Of a DNA stretch of 64,000 bases, positions 41,211 through 64,000 are shown piece after piece (the stretch's first letter is position 1; every line of letters starts with the position of its first letter). The stretch is taken from NCBI RefSeq assembly GCF_003018255.1, contig NZ_CP027440.1; one strand, 5' to 3'. The position numbers and the translations under genes were made by a program. Source of the DNA: Escherichia coli (lineage in GTDB: Bacteria; Pseudomonadota; Gammaproteobacteria; Enterobacterales; Enterobacteriaceae). The notes beneath the pieces are model-generated. The model saw only the letters and a program-made list of their open reading frames with translations, had not been told where the DNA came from and made no database searches.

Positions 41211-41306
41211 ATAAAAAAATAGAGCCTGTCGACATCCGCCAGACTCTACAGTACACACAGCAGTGCATCCTCGTCTTAAATCCGGCCTGGGGTCCTGGTG
41301 ACCGGT
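41211..41306 (-). ncRNA. mcaS: McaS (IsrA) small regulatory RNA
   Basis: Minus-strand sequence ACCGGTCACCAGGACCCCAGGCCGGATTTAAGACGAGGATGCACTGCTGTGTGTACTGTAGAGTCTGGCGGATGTCGACAGGCTCTATTTTTTTAT matches recalled McaS, including GGA motifs and a terminator hairpin with U-tract. Confidence 0.8.
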
Positions 41307-48077: not shown

Positions 48078-48351
48078 CAAAAGCAATTTTCCCGGCTGTC
48101 TGTATACAAAAACGCCGCAAAGTTTGAGCGAAGTCAATAAACTCTCTACCCATTCAGGGCAATATCTCTCTTGCAGGTGAATGCAACGTCAAGCGATGGG
48201 CGTTGCGCTCCATATTGTCTTACTTCCTTTTTTGAATTACTGCATAGCACAATTGATTCGTACGACGCCGACTTTGATGAGTCGGCTTTTTTTTGCCTGT
48301 TATTTGTCAGCGTCTACCCTTTAAGAGTCCACCCAATGACCGGAGGGAAAT

Positions 48352-52595: not shown

Positions 52596-52856
52596 TCACG
52601 AGGACTGAAGTTTCTCGCAATTAAAATTTATCAGTTTTACTTTCTGCTCTCTGGAAACGCCTGCTTCTTTTTTACCTGAGAGCATTTTTTCGCATTCTGA
52701 TTTAGTTAGTTTATATTTTGAATATCTTGTCCAGTTAGTAGGAGTGCCACCTTCCTTTTCAATAGTGGCGGTAATTTTATACATGAACACCTCCATTATT
52801 ATTTCCAGTGGTTCGTTTATTCCATCTTTCGAGTGCTTCTTTTTCACTTCCACCAT
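52596..52856 (-). CDS. ydaC: Rac prophage protein YdaC-like (DUF1187); start codon uncertain
   Basis: ORF containing MYKITATIEKEGGTPTNWTRYSKYKLTKSECEKML; synteny with int/xis/lar. Confidence 0.6.
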   Translation of the reverse strand: MVEVKKKHSKDGINEPLEIIMEVFMYKITATIEKEGGTPTNWTRYSKYKLTKSECEKMLSGKKEAGVSREQKVKLINFNCEKLQSS

Positions 52857-53027: not shown

Positions 53028-53843
<816 letters not shown>

Positions 53844-53909: not shown

Positions 53910-54509
53910 ATGCGTAAACTTTATGCCGCCATTTTGTCCGCAGCCATTTGTCTGGCCGTATCCGGTGCGCCTGCATGGGCGTCTGAACATCAGTCCACGC
54001 TGAGCGCGGGGTATCTTCATGCCCGGACGAACGTTCCCGGCAGTGATGATCTGAACGGGATTAACGTGAAATACCGTTATGAGTTTACGGACACACTGGG
54101 GATGGTGACGTCATTCAGCTATGCAGGAGACAAGAATCGTCAGCTGACCCGTTACAGCGATACCCGCTGGCATGAAGATTCCGTTCGTAACCGCTGGTTC
54201 AGCGTAATGGCGGGGCCGTCTGTGCGCGTGAATGAATGGTTCAGCGCGTATGCGATGGCGGGTGTGGCTTACAGCCGTGTGTCGACTTTTTCCGGGGATT
54301 ATATCCGCGTAACTGACAATAAGGGGAAAACGCACGATGTGCTGACCGGAAGTGATGACGGTCGCCACAGCAACACGTCTCTGGCGTGGGGGGCTGGCGT
54401 GCAGTTTAACCCGACCGAATCCGTGGCCATTGATATTGCTTATGAAGGCTCCGGCAGTGGTGACTGGCGCACTGACGGTTTCATCGTGGGTGTCGGTTAT
54501 AAATTCTGA
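53910..54509 (+). CDS. lom: Lom-like outer membrane protein (Ail/Lom/OmpX beta-barrel family)
   Basis: 199-aa ORF with signal peptide (AICLAVSGAPAWA) and C-terminal ...VGVGYKF. Confidence 0.85.
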   Translation: MRKLYAAILSAAICLAVSGAPAWASEHQSTLSAGYLHARTNVPGSDDLNGINVKYRYEFTDTLGMVTSFSYAGDKNRQLTRYSDTRWHEDSVRNRWFSVMAGPSVRVNEWFSAYAMAGVAYSRVSTFSGDYIRVTDNKGKTHDVLTGSDDGRHSNTSLAWGAGVQFNPTESVAIDIAYEGSGSGDWRTDGFIVGVGYKF

Positions 54510-54528: not shown

Positions 54529-54557
54529 TTATGACAGCCCGCCGGTTCAGGCGGGCT
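54529..54557 (+). terminator. Rho-independent terminator after lom
   Basis: Hairpin gcccgcc-ggttcag-gcgggc followed by tttttt. Confidence 0.7.
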
Positions 54558-54567
54558 TTTTTGTGGG

Positions 54568-57500
54568 GTGAATATGGCAGTAAAGATTTCAGGTGTACTG
54601 AAAGACGGTGCAGGTAAACCGGTACAGAACTGTACAATCCAGCTGAAAGCAAAACGTAACAGCACCACGGTGGTGGTGAACACGGTGGCCTCAGAAAATC
54701 CGGATGAAGCCGGGCGTTACAGCATGGACGTTGAGTACGGTCAGTACAGCGTTATTCTGTTGGTGGAAGGATTCCCGCCGTCACATGCCGGGACCATCAC
54801 CGTGTATGAAGATTCCCGACCCGGTACGCTGAATGATTTTCTCGGTGCCATGACGGAGGATGATGCCCGTCCGGAGGCTCTGCGCCGTTTTGAACTGATG
54901 GTGGAAGAGGTGGCGCGTAACGCGTCCGCGGTGGCACAGAACACGGCAGCCGCGAAGAAATCAGCCAGCGATGCCAGCACATCAGCCCGTGAGGCGGCAA
55001 CCCATGCGACTGATGCTGCAGATTCAGCACGTGCAGCCAGCACGTCAGCCGGACAGGCCGCTTCGTCGGCTCAGTCAGCGTCTTCCAGCGCAGGAACGGC
55101 ATCAACAAAGGCCACTGAAGCCTCAAAAAGTGCTGCCGCTGCAGAGTCCTCAAAAAGCGCGGCGGCTACCAGTGCCGGTGCGGCGAAAACGTCAGAAACG
55201 AATGCGGCAGCGTCACAACAATCAGCAGCCACTTCTGCATCCACCGCGACCACGAAAGCGTCAGAAGCTGCCACCTCAGCCCGGGATGCGTCGGCCTCAA
55301 AAGAGGCAGCGAAATCATCAGAAACGAACGCATCATCAAGTGCCAGTAGTGCAGCTTCCTCGGCAACGGCGGCAGGAAATTCCGCGAAGGCCGCAAAAAC
55401 GTCTGAGACGAATGCAGATAACAGCGCACAGGCGGCAGCAGACTCACAAACTGCATCAGCAAACTCCGCGACAGCAGCCAAAAAATCAGAAACCAACGCG
55501 AAAAATAGCGAGGCAGCAGCAAAGAGCAGCGAAACCAACGCTAAAGCCAGCGAAACTAATGCTAAATCCAGTGAAACAAACGCGGCGAAATCTGCGGCGG
55601 ACGCACTTAATTATCGCAACCAGGCGCAAGTAATTGTTGGCGATAATATCGGTCTTGGTGAAGTTGCCATGACCTGCACTGATATCTCTGTTGAGCCATC
55701 AGGTTATATTGGATTTGTCAGGATTTACATCTCAGCGAAAGGTTATCCATCAGTAGCGTCTAGTGCCGGTGATAATCTTATTTCTGGTTATATAGTTAGA
55801 TCAGAAGTGTCAACAAAAAGATATTCCGGTCTATTTGTTGGTTCAGATACAAAATCATTGTATTCGTACATTTACAGCCAAAGTTCTGGCCCGCAATGGA
55901 TACGTCATACCCGCAGAGATGAATTAAGCCGCTTTGGTCAAAATGAATCAACAACTCGTATGTATGGTCCAACTGGTGATCGTTTCTTTGAAATCCATAC
56001 TAACGGGAGTTGGGGAGTTTATGATTCTTCTTCTGGACAATGGTCTCCGTTAGGTTTAGCCCAGGGCGGTACTGGTGGAAGAACTATCGAGCAAGCACGT
56101 GCGAACTTGCGGGTAATGTATGAGCAAAAAGCTGGCCTTGCTAATACTGACCTAAACACCCTTACCGGTGAATATTCTGGTTTCTATCAACAACCAACGA
56201 GCGCTTACGCAACAGAAGAATTAAATTACCCAATCGGTCTGGCGGGCGCTTTAATAGTGCTCCAAACGAGAGCCAACACTGCTTCTTCCTGCGTTCAGGT
56301 GTACTACCCTTATAATAATCCGGGAATTACTTATAGACGAATATATGAAGGAGGAAGCGGTACCTGGTCTGAATGGAAGAGAGATGTATCAACAGAAAGG
56401 GTTGAAGAGGGAAAAGAAACAACTTACGTATATTCTACGTATTCTTCAGGCGCACCACGCTTACAGGTTTCCAAATCTGGTTTGTGGGGTTGTCATAATG
56501 GCACTGGCTGGTTGCCATTAGCTGTTGGGCAAGGAGGTACAGGTGCGACAACAGTAGAAGATGCGCGAAACAACTTAAGTCTTGGCGAAAGTAGCGCAGT
56601 TAAATTTAAAAACCTTACTTTAACCGAAGCGCTCGACACGACATTAGGACTGCTTACAAAAACAGGACGAGACTGGAACACGCAGCATACTGATAACATT
56701 AATAAATTTATACCAATTGCAGGCAGTACAAACGGCCCGGCAGGTTCTATGGTTCTTGGCGGCATTCATGTTCAATTTAGTAAAAATTATGCTGTGCAGT
56801 TCGGAGGCCGCAATTCCGGTTTTTGGGGAAGAACAATTGAAAATGGAACGACGCAGGAATGGAAGAAATTACTAACAGTAGACGATCTCAATTCATCTAC
56901 CGATCTTGCTGTCAGGTCATTAACCACATCTAACCCGGTAAAATCTGGCGGAGGGCGAATTGATGTCCTTGGAAGCACGTCAGACTATAGCAAAATGGAT
57001 TGCTTTGTACGTGGGTTTGATAGCACCGGTAATTCTCTCGCGTGGGCGTTGGGTTCATCAGTCGGCGTAAGTAAGATGCTGTCGCTAAAAAATTTCTTTA
57101 GCGGAGCTGAGATACTGTTAAATGGTAATGACGGCGCGGTTCAACTCAAAACAGGTGCTGTTAACGGGGCTAAAGCGCAGGCGCTCACTATCAACAAGGA
57201 TGAGGTTAACTCAACTGTTGATTTAACTCTTACAAAACAAACAGGGACTGGAAATCGTTTTGTTTTACAGAACTTAGGTAATACAGAACTATCATTTGCC
57301 GCAAAAGTATGGGGATCAAGTGATCGACAAAACGTTTTTGAGGTTGGAACGTCTGCTGCGTATCTGTTTTATGCGCAAAAAACGTCAGCAGGCCAGTTGT
57401 TTGATGTAAATGGCGCTATTAATTGCACAACGCTGAATCAGTCATCAGACCGCGACCTTAAAGACGATATTCTCGTTATCAGCGACGCGACGAAAGCAAT

Positions 57501-57879
57501 CCGTAAAATGAACGGATACACCTACACGCTCAGGGAAAACGGGATGCCTTATGCTGGCGTTATTGCACAGGAAGTAATGGAGGCGATACCAGAAGCTGTG
57601 GGATCGTTTACTCATTACGGTGAAGAGTTGCAGGGACCAACGGTTGACGGCAATGAATTACGTGAAGAAACACGTTATCTGAATGTTGACTACGCCGCCG
57701 TGACGGGGTTACTTGTTCAGGTCGCCCGTGAAACAGATGGTCGCGTTACCGCGCTGGAAGAGGAAAACATAACGCTACGTAAAAATCTGGCAACAGCAGG
57801 CACCCGGATCAGCACTCTGGAAAATCAGGTAAGCGAACTGGTTGCACTTGTCGGGCAGTTAACAGGAAGCGAACATTGA
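54568..57879 (+). CDS. stf: Side tail fiber protein (lambda Stf-like N-terminus, Ala/Ser/Thr-rich repeat shaft, C-terminal intramolecular-chaperone/S74-like domain)
   Basis: 1103-aa ORF; N-terminus MAVKISGVLKDGAGKPVQNCTIQLKAK...; SETNA-type repeats across 55050-55620; C-terminus SSDRDLKDDILVISDATKAIRKMNGYTY plus coiled coil. Confidence 0.85.
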   Translation: MNMAVKISGVLKDGAGKPVQNCTIQLKAKRNSTTVVVNTVASENPDEAGRYSMDVEYGQYSVILLVEGFPPSHAGTITVYEDSRPGTLNDFLGAMTEDDARPEALRRFELMVEEVARNASAVAQNTAAAKKSASDASTSAREAATHATDAADSARAASTSAGQAASSAQSASSSAGTASTKATEASKSAAAAESSKSAAATSAGAAKTSETNAAASQQSAATSASTATTKASEAATSARDASASKEAAKSSETNASSSASSAASSATAAGNSAKAAKTSETNADNSAQAAADSQTASANSATAAKKSETNAKNSEAAAKSSETNAKASETNAKSSETNAAKSAADALNYRNQAQVIVGDNIGLGEVAMTCTDISVEPSGYIGFVRIYISAKGYPSVASSAGDNLISGYIVRSEVSTKRYSGLFVGSDTKSLYSYIYSQSSGPQWIRHTRRDELSRFGQNESTTRMYGPTGDRFFEIHTNGSWGVYDSSSGQWSPLGLAQGGTGGRTIEQARANLRVMYEQKAGLANTDLNTLTGEYSGFYQQPTSAYATEELNYPIGLAGALIVLQTRANTASSCVQVYYPYNNPGITYRRIYEGGSGTWSEWKRDVSTERVEEGKETTYVYSTYSSGAPRLQVSKSGLWGCHNGTGWLPLAVGQGGTGATTVEDARNNLSLGESSAVKFKNLTLTEALDTTLGLLTKTGRDWNTQHTDNINKFIPIAGSTNGPAGSMVLGGIHVQFSKNYAVQFGGRNSGFWGRTIENGTTQEWKKLLTVDDLNSSTDLAVRSLTTSNPVKSGGGRIDVLGSTSDYSKMDCFVRGFDSTGNSLAWALGSSVGVSKMLSLKNFFSGAEILLNGNDGAVQLKTGAVNGAKAQALTINKDEVNSTVDLTLTKQTGTGNRFVLQNLGNTELSFAAKVWGSSDRQNVFEVGTSAAYLFYAQKTSAGQLFDVNGAINCTTLNQSSDRDLKDDILVISDATKAIRKMNGYTYTLRENGMPYAGVIAQEVMEAIPEAVGSFTHYGEELQGPTVDGNELREETRYLNVDYAAVTGLLVQVARETDGRVTALEEENITLRKNLATAGTRISTLENQVSELVALVGQLTGSEH

Positions 57880-57930
57880 TATCCTTCAAGCCCTGAAGGA
57901 GGCTGTTCCTGGTACGTTCAGACTGTTGTT

Positions 57931-58086
57931 GAGCTGGAAATCGCAACGGAGGAAGAAACTTCGTTGCTGGAAGTCTGGAAAAAGTATCGGGTGTTGCTGA
58001 ACCGTGTTGATACATCAACTGCACCTGATGTTGATTGGCCAGCAGCACCGAAGTGTAATTCATTAGAACTCATCACCTGTGAATAA
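57931..58086 (+). pseudogene. tfa: tfa (tail fiber assembly protein) 3' remnant, copy 1
   Basis: Frame 57883-58086 translates ...[50 protein letters not shown], matching the last about 40 aa of lambda Tfa; no N-terminal part. Confidence 0.6.
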
Positions 58087-58689
58087 TATCTGTTTTTGAG
58101 TAAGTTAGTAATAATCACTTAAATGTGTTATGAGTTTGTTGAGGCGTGATTTGCAATAGGATAGAGAGTACGATTATGGATTGAGAATAAGAAAGCGCCA
58201 TGAAAGAGTTTCATGGCGAGTACATAAACGTACAAAATATGATGAAAGTAGAGTGGCATAAGCCACTATGTTAACTTATAGCAATAGGGAAGATAAGTAA
58301 ATAATATTTCTTGAGTATAGTGTAAGTCGTTCATTGTAAAGCGTTAATGTTATCTATATTGTTTATCTTAAAATAAGGTGTATAAACCAAACTTTTGAGC
58401 TAAAAGTTTAAAGAGTATTAGTGCAAAAATAATGTTTAATAAGATAATCAATTTGCTTTGTATCTTCATTTCGAAAGATTGCTAAGTAACGTTAATTACC
58501 AAAACGATAGATCAGAATTATCTTAGAGTCAATGACTTTAGGTTTGTTTATAATGTAAATATTTTCTATTTGTTATAAGTTTTCTTAATATAGTCACCCA
58601 TGCAACTTGTTCCGTGTGGAGATTAAAGGTTAAAATTTAATGCGAAGATGGAATTATATTATATTTGTTATAATTAATTTAACCTTAAC

Positions 58690-58785
58690 ATCGTTGCTGG
58701 CGGCATGGAAGAAATATCGGGTCTTGCTGATGTCGTGTTGGCACTTCCTTAGTGCCGGATATCGAGTGGCCAGCTGCACCTATAG
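58690..58785 (+). pseudogene. tfa: tfa 3' remnant, copy 2 (frameshifted)
   Basis: [13 protein letters not shown] and, in another frame, PDIEWPAAP; diverged paralog of the 57931-58086 fragment. Confidence 0.5.
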
Positions 58786-58987: not shown

Positions 58988-60190
58988 CTAGGCTGCTGTA
59001 AATCTTCGATACTTTCTTAACATAAAGATCATGATTAGAATAATTGAAAGTAAGTAAACAATCCAAATGGTGATATTTCGTTCAATTAAAAAGCTACCAA
59101 TTCCGCCGATCACTGAAGGAATCACCAGAGAAGCGGCCCCCATTAACGCAGATGTGGCACCCAGACTGGTACGTTGGCTGGACATAGTTAGGTAAGTATA
59201 AAGTGATTCGAACATACCTCCGGCAAACATCAAAACAATGAAGAATAATATAAAAACATTGACATGATGAACGAATATTATTAGCGGAGTGCACAATACG
59301 ATAAATGAAGCAATGAGCTTCAGCCATAAACTCAAAATTTGTGGTGCAGACCGCTTCTTAAGTAGTTTACCTGATAGTGCTGCTCCCAGCAGAAGGAATC
59401 CTCCAATAATTGATGAGATAACACCAAATTGCGTAGATGAGTATCCATACTTAACCATCAAAATAAATGGGGAAGCTGTGACATAACAATAAATTAGAGA
59501 GAATGAAAGTCCAAGAGAAAGGCAAGGTAGATAAAATCTTGGTTGCTTACTTATCTCTTTGTACGTAAGAAATGATGATTTTAGTGAATATGTAATCCGT
59601 TTTTTATGACTGAGTGTTTCAGGGAAGTTAAAATAGACATACGTTAATGTTACAACAGAATATCCTAATATCATTAGAAAAATTGCACGCCATCCCCATA
59701 CATCATTAATTATTCCTCCCAGCAGTGGAGAAGCAATAGGCACGACACCTTCAATAGTTATGATAATAGCGTACAGTGTAGCAGCCACTGAACCGCGTGT
59801 TACATCACGAACGGCACTAATTGCTGTAACCAGAGTTATTGATATAGAAAGCCCCTGTATGATGCGTATTGTAAGAAACGTACCCAATCCGGTCGAGAGT
59901 GTGAGGCAATATGTTGTCACACAATAAATAATAGCACCTGAAAGCATAATTCTTCGACGACCAATAGAATCAGATAATGGGCCAAAAATTAGCTGTCCAA
60001 AACCTATACAAAGGGTATAAACCATGATAGACAATTGCATGGACGGGATGTTTTGTCTAAATTCTTTTGCGATGTCAGGAATTGAAGGCAAATAAGTGTC
60101 CACACCTAGAATGCCCATAATAGTCAGCAGCGATAGGCCAATAGTAAAGAAAAGTATATTCTTTCTGTGAATAACAACTTGTGATTTCAT
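58988..60190 (-). CDS. MFS transporter, 12-TMS DHA1-like (Bcr/CflA-type) exporter; AT-rich
   Basis: 400-aa polytopic ORF with MFS motif region (GPLSDSIGRRRIMLSG); strongly AT-rich codon usage relative to the core genes. Confidence 0.75.
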   Translation of the reverse strand: MKSQVVIHRKNILFFTIGLSLLTIMGILGVDTYLPSIPDIAKEFRQNIPSMQLSIMVYTLCIGFGQLIFGPLSDSIGRRRIMLSGAIIYCVTTYCLTLSTGLGTFLTIRIIQGLSISITLVTAISAVRDVTRGSVAATLYAIIITIEGVVPIASPLLGGIINDVWGWRAIFLMILGYSVVTLTYVYFNFPETLSHKKRITYSLKSSFLTYKEISKQPRFYLPCLSLGLSFSLIYCYVTASPFILMVKYGYSSTQFGVISSIIGGFLLLGAALSGKLLKKRSAPQILSLWLKLIASFIVLCTPLIIFVHHVNVFILFFIVLMFAGGMFESLYTYLTMSSQRTSLGATSALMGAASLVIPSVIGGIGSFLIERNITIWIVYLLSIILIMIFMLRKYRRFTAA

Positions 60191-60952
60191 TATTTATCAC
60201 CATGAATAAATTAAAAGAATGAAAAAAACTCCATTTAAATGGAAGGAGGTGGATAATTATCGTGTAGGCAATACAACAGAGTTGAAAAGAACTGTCAAAC
60301 TTTTAACTCAAAAAAGTGAGATGTGAATCACAGACATAAAAATCATCTTTTTCAGCCCTATGGTTCAGTTAAATTTGATTGTTATCGTACGAAGGTTTGA
60401 ACGTGTGTGTGCGTATGCGGTATTTTTTCTTGCGAGTGCCGGAGTTATGAGAGCGTTGTATTAACCTTCATAATCTGACCTATTCAATTGATTCCAGTAC
60501 ACCAATGGGTATTTTGGTGTTATGGTATGTGACTCCAAATAAAATGGAGCGTGAACTGATAGTTGTGCGAACAAAAGTCGGACTAGAAACCGCTCGGGTA
60601 CAGTGGCGAATTGGAGTTGGCGACCCAAACTGACCTAGGAACAATCGTTGCAGATCGGACGATTAATTTCATCAGAAATTCCTCGCTAAAAGGTGGCTAT
60701 CACTGTGATGTTAACGTATCTAATTTGTACAAGAAATTTCTGCGGGGGAAAATGAAACCGCAGACTCGTTGTATGCAAAAACGTGCTGCGGCTAACTGGT
60801 GAACTTTCGATAGTGCGGGTATTGAATGATTTCTAGGCGTTATCGATTTTACGTATTTTTTGCATGATAGAATTCGTACCTCCTCCCAACGACCTTCCAT
60901 GGCTTTCCGGACTTCTGTAGGCCGGCGGACGATGCTGTCCTCGGATGTTGTG

Positions 60953-61810
60953 CTAATTGGGTGATAACAGATCCTGTGTATGGGAGTTTCCCTTTGTGCG
61001 TGCGTTGATGCTGGTAACGGTAAACGTCATGATGAACACGACCGCGAATAAGACGACAATCGTCGGAGCTGGTGCGCTGTCGATAAAAAAGGACAACCAG
61101 ACACCAGTCATTGACACTATTACCGATATGCCAGTCGCCAGTAGGAGCGCAATATGAAAGCGTTGTGTCAGGAGTACCGCAATGGCGCCAGGCGCTATGA
61201 GCAGAGAAATGGAGAGAATGATACCTACCGCTTTCAGCGTCGCCACAATGGTCAGAGAGACCATGCACAGCAGCCCATAATGCAGCCATCTCGTATGCAA
61301 ACCGCTTACCTGCGCCTGTTGATAATCAAAGCTGAACAGCAAAAAATCCCGCCATTTTACGCTAATAACAAGTGTAACCAGCCCGGCAATAATCATCGTC
61401 TGGATTATATCGCCGATGGTTATCCCGAGCATGTCGCCGAAAAGAATATGGTCAAGATGTACGTCTGGTTTGACTGCAATATACAAGATCAGACCTGCGG
61501 CAAACATGCCAGAAAAAACAATCCCCATCACTGTATCTTGCTTGATTCGGCTGTTGTCTTTCAGGTATCCCGTCGCCACCGCGCAGAATACTCCGGCGAC
61601 GAATGCCCCTGTAGCTAAAGGTAACCCCAGAATCCAGGCAAGCACGATGCCAGGAAAAACTGCATGACTCATCGCGTCACCCATCAGTGCCCAACCTTTC
61701 AGGACCAGAAAGACCGACAGCAGCGCACAGGGTATGGAAACTACCAGTGAAATCAGCAGTGCGTGACTCATAAAGGTGAACTGCAGTGGCTCCAGTAATA
61801 ATGCCATCAT
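60953..61810 (-). CDS. sitD: Mn/Fe ABC transporter permease SitD
   Basis: 285-aa polytopic ORF, last gene of the sit operon. Confidence 0.85.
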   Translation of the reverse strand: MMALLLEPLQFTFMSHALLISLVVSIPCALLSVFLVLKGWALMGDAMSHAVFPGIVLAWILGLPLATGAFVAGVFCAVATGYLKDNSRIKQDTVMGIVFSGMFAAGLILYIAVKPDVHLDHILFGDMLGITIGDIIQTMIIAGLVTLVISVKWRDFLLFSFDYQQAQVSGLHTRWLHYGLLCMVSLTIVATLKAVGIILSISLLIAPGAIAVLLTQRFHIALLLATGISVIVSMTGVWLSFFIDSAPAPTIVVLFAVVFIMTFTVTSINARTKGNSHTQDLLSPN

Positions 61811-62664
61811 GAGCGATCCTCCAGCGCCTTATGCGCACGCCGACGATTTGCCAAAAGCCCATGGGTGGGCGCAAAGACAAATGCTAAAAGAAACAGCAGT
61901 GTCTGCGCCACCACGATGATTCCACCTGTCGCGCCGTCCAGAAAGTAACTGACCCACGAGCCGAGGAAACTGGTTACACTGCCAATAGTTACAGCAATCA
62001 TGAGCAGGCGGGGAAAACGATCGGTTAACAACCATGCTGTTGCACCGGGAGTCACCACCAGACAGATCACCAGAAAGGCACCAACCGTTTGCAGCGCCGC
62101 AACGGTCGAAACCGACAGCAGGGTGAAGAAGAGGAGTTTTAATCTGCCCGGATGCAATCCAATAGCACGGGCGTGATTCTCGTCGAAAAAGGTCACCATA
62201 AGATCTTTCCATTTGAAAAAAAGCACGATGATCGAGAGAATGCCAATGATAGTGAGTTGCAGGATATCCGCCGGATCGATTGCCAGAATATTGCCCAGGA
62301 CGATGGTCTGAATGTTCACAGATGTCGGGTTCAATGACACCATAAACAGCCCCAGGCCAAAAAAGGATGAGAAGATCAGGCCGATGATGGCATCTTCTTT
62401 TAAGCGGGTGCGTTGGTTAAGAAACAGCATGCTGCCCGCAGCCAGTCCGCCGGAAAAGAAGGCTCCCAGAGAAAACGGAAGCCCCAGCATATATGCTCCC
62501 GCAACACCCGGGACAATAGAGTGCGACAACGCATCGCCAATCAGCGACCAGCCTTTTAGCATCAGATAGCATGACAGGAAAGCGCAGAGACCGCCGACCA
62601 TCGCCGAGACCCACATCGCATTGAGCATATATTCATAGCTGAAGGGTTCCAGTAGCACGTTCAT
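61807..62664 (-). CDS. sitC: Mn/Fe ABC transporter permease SitC
   Basis: 285-aa polytopic ORF overlapping sitD by 4 nt. Confidence 0.85.
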
Positions 62665-63488
62665 CTTTCTTCCCTCTGCACCGCTGACGGTCGATGAGCC
62701 ACAAAAGGGCGTTCATCGTCAGTAATAATGCTTTCTTCCGAGCCGTTAAGTGTGACATGGCGCAGTACGCCGCTAAAAGCCAGCTCCAGGTTCTCGGCTG
62801 TAAAAGTGGTGTCTGTCGGCCCGCTTGCCAGGACGGTGCCTTTGACCATGACCGTATAATCGCAAAATGTCGTGACGGATCCGAGATTGTGTGTTGAGAC
62901 AAGCATCGTTTTGCCTTCCGCGCGTAACTCCCTCAACAGGCTGATGATTTTGGCTTCGGTTTTCACATCAACGCCAGTAAAAGGTTCATCCAGCAGGATC
63001 ACATCACCCTGCTGTGCAATCGCTCTCGCCAGAAAGACGCGTTTCTTTTGTCCACCGGAAAGCTCGCCGATTTGTCGATGGCGAAAATTCACCATATCGA
63101 CACGTTCCAGCGCATCGGTGACAATTTGACGATCCCTCTTTTTGGCGATACGCAACATACCCATATGCCCATAGCGGCCCATCATCACCACATCTTCCAC
63201 CAGTACAGGAAATGACCAGTCAACCTCTTCTGACTGAGGGACGTAGGCAACCAGGTTTTTCTGTAACGCCTGTCGCGTGGGAATACCCAGAACAGATATC
63301 TTTCCGCTGGTCAGACGCACAAATCCCATAATCGCTTTAAACAACGTCGATTTTCCGGAACCGTTTACCCCAACCAGAGCGGCAATAGATCCACTTGGTA
63401 CTGTGAAGGATGCATCGCGCAGTGCTGTGTGCCCGTTACGCCAGGTGACAGTAACATCATTAACGACAATGCCTGCAGATTGCATCAT
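62661..63488 (-). CDS. sitB: Mn/Fe ABC transporter ATP-binding protein SitB
   Basis: 275-aa ORF with Walker [10 protein letters not shown], signature LSGGQKKRV, Walker [12 protein letters not shown]. Confidence 0.88.
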
Positions 63489-64000
63489 TATTTCTCCCTT
63501 TTCCCGGCTTTAATTCCCTGTACCAGCGTACTGGTAGTAACCTTAAGAAGGTCGATATACGTCGGTACCGGGCCGTTTTCTGTGCTCAGGGAATCGACAT
63601 AGAGCACACCGCCGTAGTGTGCGCCGGTTTCACGCGCAACCTGACGCGCTGGTTTATCGGAAATCGTACTCTCGCTAAAGACTGCCGGGATATGATTTTT
63701 CTTAACTATATCAACAACCTTACGTACCTGTTGCGGTGTTCCTTGTTGATCGGCATTAATCGGCCACAGATAAAGCTCTTTTAGCCCCAAATCGCGTGCG
63801 AGATAAGAAAAAGCCCCTTCACTGGTGACCATCCACCGCTGATTCTCAGGGAGTTCCGTAATCTGCTTACGCAGGGGGGCAAGGGTTTGGGTAATCTTGG
63901 CTTTATAAGTATCGGCATTACGTTGGTAGGTTTGTGCATTAGCGGGATCGTATTTTATCAACGCATCACGAATATTATCGACGTAAATCAGAGCATTATC
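63488..64000 (-). CDS. sitA: Mn/Fe ABC transporter periplasmic binding protein SitA, C-terminal part only; 5' end beyond the window end
   Basis: Minus-strand frame open to the window edge; cluster A-I SBP sequence; stop overlaps the sitB ATG (ATGA). Confidence 0.8.

Follow-up and report, generated by a model that had tools for sequence, protein, structure and literature searches.

The side tail fibre gene stf of the window (the whole stretch of 64,000 nucleotides of Escherichia coli DNA analysed here) encodes a protein that ends in a Peptidase_S74 intramolecular chaperone domain of 144 residues, and no functional tfa gene is present beside it. We consider it highly probable that this gene specifies a lambdoid side tail fibre with exchangeable parts, in which a self-chaperoning distal cassette replaced a Tfa-dependent tip, and that it now persists as a silent passenger that has not decayed.

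By reading the open reading frame from the letters, we found it uninterrupted and free of internal stops from 54568 to 57879 on the + strand, and 14 complete E. coli genomes carry intact annotated CDSs that match all of its 3312 nt at 100% identity. The first-pass annotation had given this frame as 1103 aa; its intactness holds whereas its length does not, since the GTG at 54568 lies two codons upstream of the real start. The true start is the ATG at 54574 (MAVKISG...), which yields 1101 aa and matches both the RefSeq annotation and a solved 94-residue N-terminal fibre fragment (9e7m). The gene lies after J and lom (order J', lom, stf), that is in the position of a lambda-type side tail fibre (Stf), and the coordinates of all features are collected in Table 1.

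Table 1. Coordinates of stf, of the parts of its product and of neighbouring features in the window.
Feature	Position	Strand	Remarks
14-bp overlap at the RecT/J deletion junction	53324-53337		junction sequence GACGTGGGTATCAG
3' remnant of central tail fibre gene J	53324..53843	+	
lom, intact	53910..54509	+	PHROG 108 1.4e-109
terminator-like hairpin after lom	54536..54557	+	followed by a T run
stf, side tail fibre gene	54574..57879	+	1101 codons + TGA stop; PHROG 6578 tail fibre E=0
N-terminal tail-attachment domain (Pfam phage_tail_N)	54574..54975	+	residues 1-134; Pfam 4.5e-72; PDB 9e7m 2.9e-51
Ala/Ser/Thr-rich shaft	54889..55608	+	residues 106-345
pyocin-fibre-like knob region	56158..56592	+	residues about 529-673; PDB 6cl5 2.4e-6
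distal module, presumed receptor-binding tip of the mature fibre	56602..57444	+	residues 677-957
predicted scissile bond Ser957/Ser958	57442..57447	+	by homology to T5 pb1
intramolecular chaperone (Peptidase_S74 / ICA) domain	57445..57876	+	residues 958-1101, 144 aa, last of 1101
long C-terminal helix, presumed trimeric coiled coil	57691..57861	+	residues 1040-1096
36-nt spacer	57880..57915	+	conserved in all lambdoid relatives
tfa 3' fragment 1, cassette-swap scar	57916..58086	+	TfaR residues 147-191, then divergent tail to stop; RefSeq partial pseudogene
AT-rich stretch between tfa fragments, no annotated gene	58087..58690	.	about 32-35% GC
tfa 3' fragment 2, frameshifted	58691..58781	+	

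The proximal half of the protein is that of a lambdoid fibre. The phage_tail_N match supports the lambda-Stf-like N-terminus proposed earlier, and at the DNA level the 5' ~840 nt of stf are 96% identical to K-12 stfR. BLASTP of the window Stf against StfR gave no significant match, as adjustment for the composition of the Ala/Ser-rich shaft masked this 96%-identical N-terminus; a search of NCBIfam returned no family at E <= 0.001. The shaft, described before as of low complexity, is made of Ala, Ser and Thr to 68% compared to 35% for the whole protein, and GC falls after it at about 55500, which points to a mosaic joint. Two GGTG motifs follow, at residues 498 and 654, the second of which marks the end of the knob region. 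Further on, the last 425 aa are 90.6% identical to the Stf of phage mEp460, and the last ~40 residues of the distal module, to which we ascribe a probable receptor-binding role, resemble the T4 gp34 repeat domain (gp34 matches 1.5e-7). The gp37-like His-rich (GAHTHS) receptor-binding tip that K-12 StfR carries is absent from this protein.

The identity of the C-terminus was then confirmed by several approaches. First, the Pfam Peptidase_S74 model (PF13884), which the first-pass annotation had proposed for this region, matched at E = 1.7e-11 over model positions 1-57 of 58. Second, the motif SSDRDLKDDI begins at residue 957 (nt 57442), exactly where it had been placed, and NGYTYTL at residue 980. 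The Ser958 and Lys963 dyad, with Lys five residues downstream of Ser at the start of the domain, is invariant in 64/64 relatives and aligns with S/K of S16 gp37, of a T5-like fibre and of GA-1, and with A/K in the MYRF chain. Third, in 150 representative relatives the median distance between the end of the S74 match and the C-terminus is 6 residues, and the prediction of the terminal helix is of high confidence, this helix showing the heptad pattern reported before. A first AF2 model, covering the last 350 residues as a monomer, was poor (pLDDT 60.8, <50 near the cut site) and gave no meaningful Foldseek match; a model of the chaperone alone, from a deeper alignment, took its place. This second model, of high confidence, shows the S74 fold, that is a small alpha/beta unit, a long beta-hairpin and the C-terminal helix, and its sole real fold matches are four solved chaperone domains (endoNF, T5 pb1, GA-1 and MYRF). 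Sequence profiles never matched endoNF (3GW6) or T5 pb1 (4UW8) directly, and it is fold comparison alone that linked them to Stf.

Among solved structures, the closest relative by sequence is the C-terminus of Salmonella phage S16 gp37 (PDB 6F45, profile E = 1.7e-14), whose alignment to Stf runs from end to end of the chaperone, with SSDRxxK and the terminal helix both covered. However, gp37 belongs to the long tail fibre of a T4-like myovirus that also uses a separate gp38 adhesin. The chaperone domain of the K1F endosialidase (PDB 3GW6), the founding Peptidase_S74 member, is carried by a podovirus tailspike enzyme rather than by a fibre, and its sequence does not match Stf even with a profile. 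In the L-shaped fibre protein pb1 of T5, Arg1250 and Asp1239, which lie upstream of the cut site and come from the neighbouring chain, sense correct folding. Cleavage of pb1 occurs between Thr1263 and Ser1264, with Lys1269 at +5, and the helix equivalent to the terminal helix of Stf forms a triple coiled coil (PMC4690869). The spacing of Ser958 and Lys963 is thus that of Ser1264 and Lys1269. On the other hand, both chaperones share only about 12% sequence identity, the terminal helix has about 57 residues in Stf but about 24 in pb1, the tips that precede the chaperone are unrelated by sequence, and pb1 docks through p132 whereas the window Stf has the lambda phage_tail_N domain. By analogy with pb1 and the K1F enzyme, we infer that this Stf trimerises and cleaves itself.

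Within the lambdoid family, lambda Stf/Tfa and StfR/TfaR of the K-12 Rac prophage share with the window Stf the gene position (J, lom, stf), the N-terminal domain and the shaft. In contrast, lambda Stf and StfR end in the gp37-like GAHTHS-repeat tip and require a downstream Tfa, while the window Stf has another tip, equipped with its own chaperone, and codons 1-146 of tfa are missing. K-12 StfR keeps the alternative cassette with an intact TfaR, and it carries no S74 domain. The Stf proteins of mEp460 (NC_019716, gp20) and Ayreon (MF807953) have the same architecture, chaperone, 36-nt spacer and tfa fragment as the window, and mEp460 Stf matches the window protein without a difference over its last 220 residues. 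They differ by their longer shafts (1202 and 1252 aa, respectively) and by being encoded in complete phage genomes.

Downstream of stf, positions 57916-58050 correspond to TfaR residues 147-191 of 191 at 75% identity (by tblastn, the C-terminal 45 codons only). This first fragment has no start codon and its first ~146 codons are absent, so that no full-length Tfa ORF exists. In every lambdoid relative with enough downstream sequence, mEp460 and Ayreon included, the 45-codon fragment starts exactly 37 nt after the stf stop codon, and a scan with the TfaR query found a full tfa in 0/80 related loci. Because the same fragment recurs at a fixed junction in the lambdoid relatives, and a full tfa is found at none of these loci, the first fragment is the scar of an old cassette swap rather than the product of local decay. 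Hence the first-pass annotation, which had seen tfa reduced to short 3' remnants beside an S74 fibre, was right about the remnants and the lack of a functional tfa, and the link to S74 is stronger than it proposed, but decay within this prophage does not account for fragment 1. We do not take the pairwise omega of the fragment (0.2-0.7) as constraint, since each pair offers ~13 substitutions and exchange with functional tfa alleles by recombination confounds the estimate.

Taking these observations together, we propose the following sequence of events. The N-terminal anchor and the Ala/Ser/Thr-rich shaft are the part common to lambda Stf and K-12 StfR, and the distal cassette brings its own folding device in the form of the C-terminal 144-residue chaperone. 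[quoted passage not shown] Cleavage between Ser957 and Ser958, carried out by Ser958 with activation from Lys963, would follow when the tip has reached its correct fold; the chaperone would thereby be shed, and 957 residues would remain as the mature fibre. Since folding would occur within the same chain, no separate Tfa should be needed. Fragment 1 is the right-hand scar of a recombination that swapped the Tfa-dependent tip and the first ~146 tfa codons for the S74 cassette. The stf gene of the window is a complete and probably assembly-competent fibre gene of the self-chaperoning type.

The prophage that carries it has been gutted and retains int, xis, RalR/RalA, a Lar-like gene, an 81-aa RecT fragment, a 171-aa J fragment, lom and stf. 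It occupies the Rac site, carries sit and is missing all that lay from recT up to the 3' end of J. The RecT/J junction is found in 0/5,426 complete E. coli genomes and, by exact search, in no GTDB representative genome; its absence from all 5,426 complete genomes means that the deletion is probably recent. It is improbable, in our view, that the bacterium keeps the fibre gene for its own use, to arm a tailocin or another prophage, or as a host-range cassette captured by incoming lambdoid phages through the shaft and tfa-scar flanks; in a milder version, the shaft repeats and the tfa 3' end may be universal linkers for switching Tfa-dependent and self-chaperoning tips in lambdoid phages. Very improbable is the retention under selection suggested by the first-pass annotation, in which stf is useful to the host as a surface adhesin, as a tailocin fibre or by complementing other prophages and its intactness reflects purifying selection. 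The 1101-codon ORF is indeed intact while most neighbouring phage genes are deleted, and the same allele occurs at 100% identity in many strains. However, the gutting looks recent and therefore left little time for stf to decay; int, xis and lom are also intact; and the allele is 100% identical to copies in far more complete prophages. Moreover, other prophage copies of stf are frameshifted (L022, L027, L031, L086 and L087) or 5'-truncated (L026, L029, L034 and L044), and omega (0.08-0.19 across lineages) was measured between phage lineages and is silent on selection in this host. Finally, stf begins about 17 nt past the hairpin that follows lom and that resembles a strong terminator, the equivalent mEp460 site is annotated as a rho-independent terminator, and a consensus terminator and promoter scan revealed no promoter-like site between this terminator and the stf ATG, so the gene is presumably not expressed here. 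To our knowledge, Stf has neither a signal peptide nor an export route. The most likely reading is that stf is a passenger, silent but so far undecayed, which could act as a recombination donor for incoming lambdoid phages.

The truncated tfa and the defective prophage could also suggest that the S74-like C-terminus has degenerated to a relic, that the fibre does not function without its lost Tfa and that the gene is dead though still free of stop codons. We find this still less probable, since the phage isolates mEp460 and Ayreon have the same C-terminus next to the same tfa fragment, the dyad is invariant, omega is low across lineages, and the modelled chaperone matches solved ones. Lastly, it is hardly credible that readthrough of the TGA fuses Stf to the tfa fragment as a functional extension: stop codon, 36-nt spacer and fragment do share one reading frame in all 42 lambdoid loci, as expected from descent from a single event, but variable sites in the fragment are even over codon positions (25/27/28), a test after which we dropped this explanation, one allele is frameshifted, several have unrelated 3' ends, and more distant relatives have a TAA stop and no tfa fragment.

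The S74 stf module is present in 795/5,426 complete E. coli genomes (about 15%), and the tfa scar travels with it there and in phage isolates. The self-chaperoning architecture is thus common and ordinary in E. coli prophages, and it is already known, as RefSeq names it; the importance of our finding is small beyond correct annotation. For annotation, hundreds of E. coli genomes list a "partial tail fiber assembly protein" pseudogene beside such genes; our result shows this pseudogene to be an inherited recombination scar and not a sign of local decay. For phage engineering, StfR/TfaR and the window stf would offer natural splice points for a fibre tip that needs no helper gene, because they share anchor, shaft and right flank yet differ in their tip.

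The lambda-type side tail fibre gene stf of the gutted Rac-site prophage is, as the first-pass annotation described it, an ORF without internal stop, but the GTG start given there for a 1103-residue protein gives way to the ATG two codons downstream (54574), which yields 1101 residues. This ATG was chosen by RefSeq for identical genes, and the product begins MAVKISG..., as does the N-terminus of a fibre fragment of known structure (94 residues; 9e7m, E = 2.9e-51); all Stf residue numbers are counted from it. Intact annotated CDSs from 14 complete E. coli genomes match stf at 100% identity across 3312 nt, which makes a sequencing artefact or a hidden frameshift unlikely. The factual elements of the earlier description were otherwise all confirmed, namely a lambda-Stf-like N-terminus (Pfam phage_tail_N, 4.5e-72), a low-complexity shaft (68% Ala+Ser+Thr over residues 106-345) and, near the C-terminus, S-D-R-D-L-K-D-D-I within SSDRDLKDDI (from residue 957, nt 57442) followed by NGYTYTL (from residue 980). 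With PHROGs, the complete protein falls in the tail-fibre family phrog_6578 (E = 0).

Coordinates of the features discussed, with strand where marked
Feature	Coordinates	Observation	Basis
McaS	41211-41306 (-)	ordinary E. coli core sRNA gene	Rfam
FnrS	48173-48290 (+)	ordinary E. coli core sRNA gene	Rfam
RalR/RalA	52596-52856	type I toxin-antitoxin of Rac, kept in gutted prophage	
RalA sRNA	52600-52778 (+)	217 bits; overlaps RalR ORF on minus strand	Rfam
RecT/J junction	53324-53337	14-bp overlap	
stf ORF	54568-57879 (+)		
gp34-like segment	57319-57444	profile E = 1.5e-7 to 4uxe/5nxf	
Terminal coiled coil	57691-57876		
tfa fragment 1	57916-58050	TfaR residues 147-191, 75% identity	tblastn
Stretch between tfa fragments	58087-58690	~600 bp, 32-35% GC, no annotated gene	
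tfa fragment 2	58691-58781	frameshifted	tblastn
MFS transporter gene + sitDCBA	58988-63961	Bcr/CflA-type transporter, iron/manganese uptake; cargo, right end of Rac-site prophage	

Several comparisons support the proposed Peptidase_S74 intramolecular chaperone (ICA) domain. First, Pfam returned a significant Peptidase_S74 match at residues 958-1009 (1.7e-11). Second, Ser958, Asp959, Leu962 and Lys963, and with them the Ser/Lys dyad, were invariant in an alignment of 64 distinct C-terminal 350-residue segments, obtained from 80 related loci gathered from viral contigs. Third, a profile built from 44 diverse chaperone members and run against the structure database matched the S16 gp37 C-terminal chaperone (6f45, 1.7e-14), the MYRF ICA domain (7dc3, 2.8e-9), a T5-like L-shaped fibre (8hqz, 1.2e-4) and, weakly, the GA-1 neck appendage chaperone (3gud, 0.086); Ser and the Lys at +5 share alignment columns in all four, the MYRF chain having Ala for Ser. 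A search of the last 151 Stf residues against 1.84 billion representative proteins gave 1,976 clusters at E <= 0.001, the median distance from the end of the match to the protein C-terminus being 6 residues. As the matched proteins range from about 100 to more than 1,400 residues (with a single outlier of 5,473), the chaperone appears to be a portable C-terminal module. Its omega between lineages was 0.08-0.19. The terminal coiled coil is modular in its own right: two related proteins (P0068 and P0072) have chaperone cores only 44-46% identical to that of the window Stf, yet match it almost perfectly over their last ~25 residues, and the coil of a third (P0014) has about 21 additional residues.

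T5 pb1 is cleaved at Thr1263-Ser1264, with the serine activated by Lys1269, and the released domain of 133 residues ends in a triple coiled coil, at which folding is proposed to begin; cleavage is proposed to need correct trimer formation (PMC4690869). We infer autoproteolysis and trimerisation of Stf by this homology: the predicted cut at Ser957|Ser958 would free the last 144 residues, so that the mature fibre would have 957. In pb1, folding is also sensed by residues upstream of the bond; a longer monomer model of the Stf C-terminus was too poor to place their counterparts. The ~40 residues preceding the predicted cut site resemble a repeat domain found in gp34, the proximal long tail fibre of T4.

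Downstream of stf, tblastn with TfaR, the separate tail fibre assembly protein of the K-12 Rac prophage, detected just two pieces, so that the reduction of tfa to short 3' remnants holds. Moreover, none of the 80 viral loci carried a full tfa. The suggested link between the S74 chaperone and the missing gene is supported; the BASEL collection paper (10.1101/2024.09.12.612763) likewise states that intramolecular chaperones at the fibre C-terminus and separate Tfa proteins are alternatives. The cause, though, lies elsewhere than in this prophage. The phages mEp460 (NC_019716) and Ayreon (MF807953) share the window Stf C-terminus, identical over the last 220 residues in mEp460, with the tfa fragment directly after, and no further tfa-like sequence was found across the whole 44.5-kb mEp460 genome. 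From their records, we take both to be plaque-forming isolates. Wherever a lambdoid locus among the 80 extends far enough downstream, the fragment begins exactly 37 nt past the fibre stop codon; in more distant relatives (mostly phage contigs of ~50-55 kb) an integrase gene or opposite-strand genes directly follow the fibre. Together, these data show that the tfa truncation travels with the chaperone module in working phages, and did not arise by decay inside this prophage.

At this chromosomal site, the K-12 Rac prophage has the alternative arrangement. The 5' 840 nt of its stfR are 96% identical to stf and homology returns for the final 137 nt of tfaR; between these ends, K-12 encodes a tip with GAHTHS repeats as well as an intact TfaR. 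Similarity to stfR ends at 55415, coinciding with a drop in GC from ~58% to 42-45% near nt 55500 (window 55400-55700), which marks the left joint of the mosaic, at the boundary between shaft and distal cassette. On the simplest reading, a single old recombination would have exchanged a Tfa-dependent tip and tfa codons 1-146 for a self-chaperoning tip. The remaining fragment 1 is a neutral scar and not a gene, given that its variable sites are even across codon positions (25/27/28), that one allele is frameshifted and that its 3' ends are mosaic. The stf TGA, the 36-nt spacer and the fragment share one frame (57877-58086) in all 42 lambdoid relatives; readthrough of the stop is unlikely, as substitutions lack codon-position bias. 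The stretch separating the two tfa fragments is common to the attLambda-site prophage of APEC O78 (L001) up to 58681 and thus accompanies the fibre module in some prophages.

Of 5,426 complete E. coli genomes, 795 have the chaperone together with the tfa scar, and 115 have near-full-length stf. RefSeq already names relatives, for example "pyocin knob domain-containing S74 family peptidase". Both the type of protein and its arrangement are thus known already, and the fixed tfa scar is a neat minor point rather than a discovery.

The region around stf reads ttcA, int, xis, RalR/RalA, a Lar-like gene, an 81-aa RecT fragment and a 171-aa J fragment, then lom, stf, the two tfa fragments, the MFS transporter gene and sitDCBA; McaS and FnrS lie left of ttcA. 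In strain GF54 (L007), a Rac-site prophage shows the state before the deletion: its tail module is full and its right end is the same as far as uspF, with the MFS gene and sitDCBA placed after tfa fragment 2 and before uspF. At 35-38% GC, the MFS gene is AT-rich, as are its flanks. The deletion joined recT to the 3' end of J, and this junction was found in none of the 5,426 complete E. coli genomes and had no match among GTDB representative genomes, so the gutting is confined to a narrow lineage and is probably recent.

This bears on the earlier proposal that stf, being intact in an otherwise gutted prophage, is retained under host selection, for which the analysis gave no support and which we consider unlikely. 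After a recent gutting, an intact 3.3-kb ORF is expected under neutrality. Furthermore, at least nine viral-locus copies are frameshifted or 5'-truncated, and the stf start is preceded at ~17 nt by a strong terminator-like hairpin, with no promoter-like site in between. Finally, the identical allele (99.9-100% over 3312 nt) also resides in much fuller prophages, at attLambda/bio in APEC O78 (L001, 9001-12312) and at Qin/ydfJ in strain C11 (L002, 7001-10312). With ttcA/Rac, the allele spans three attachment sites in different strains, which indicates that lambdoid prophages have recently exchanged the fibre region.
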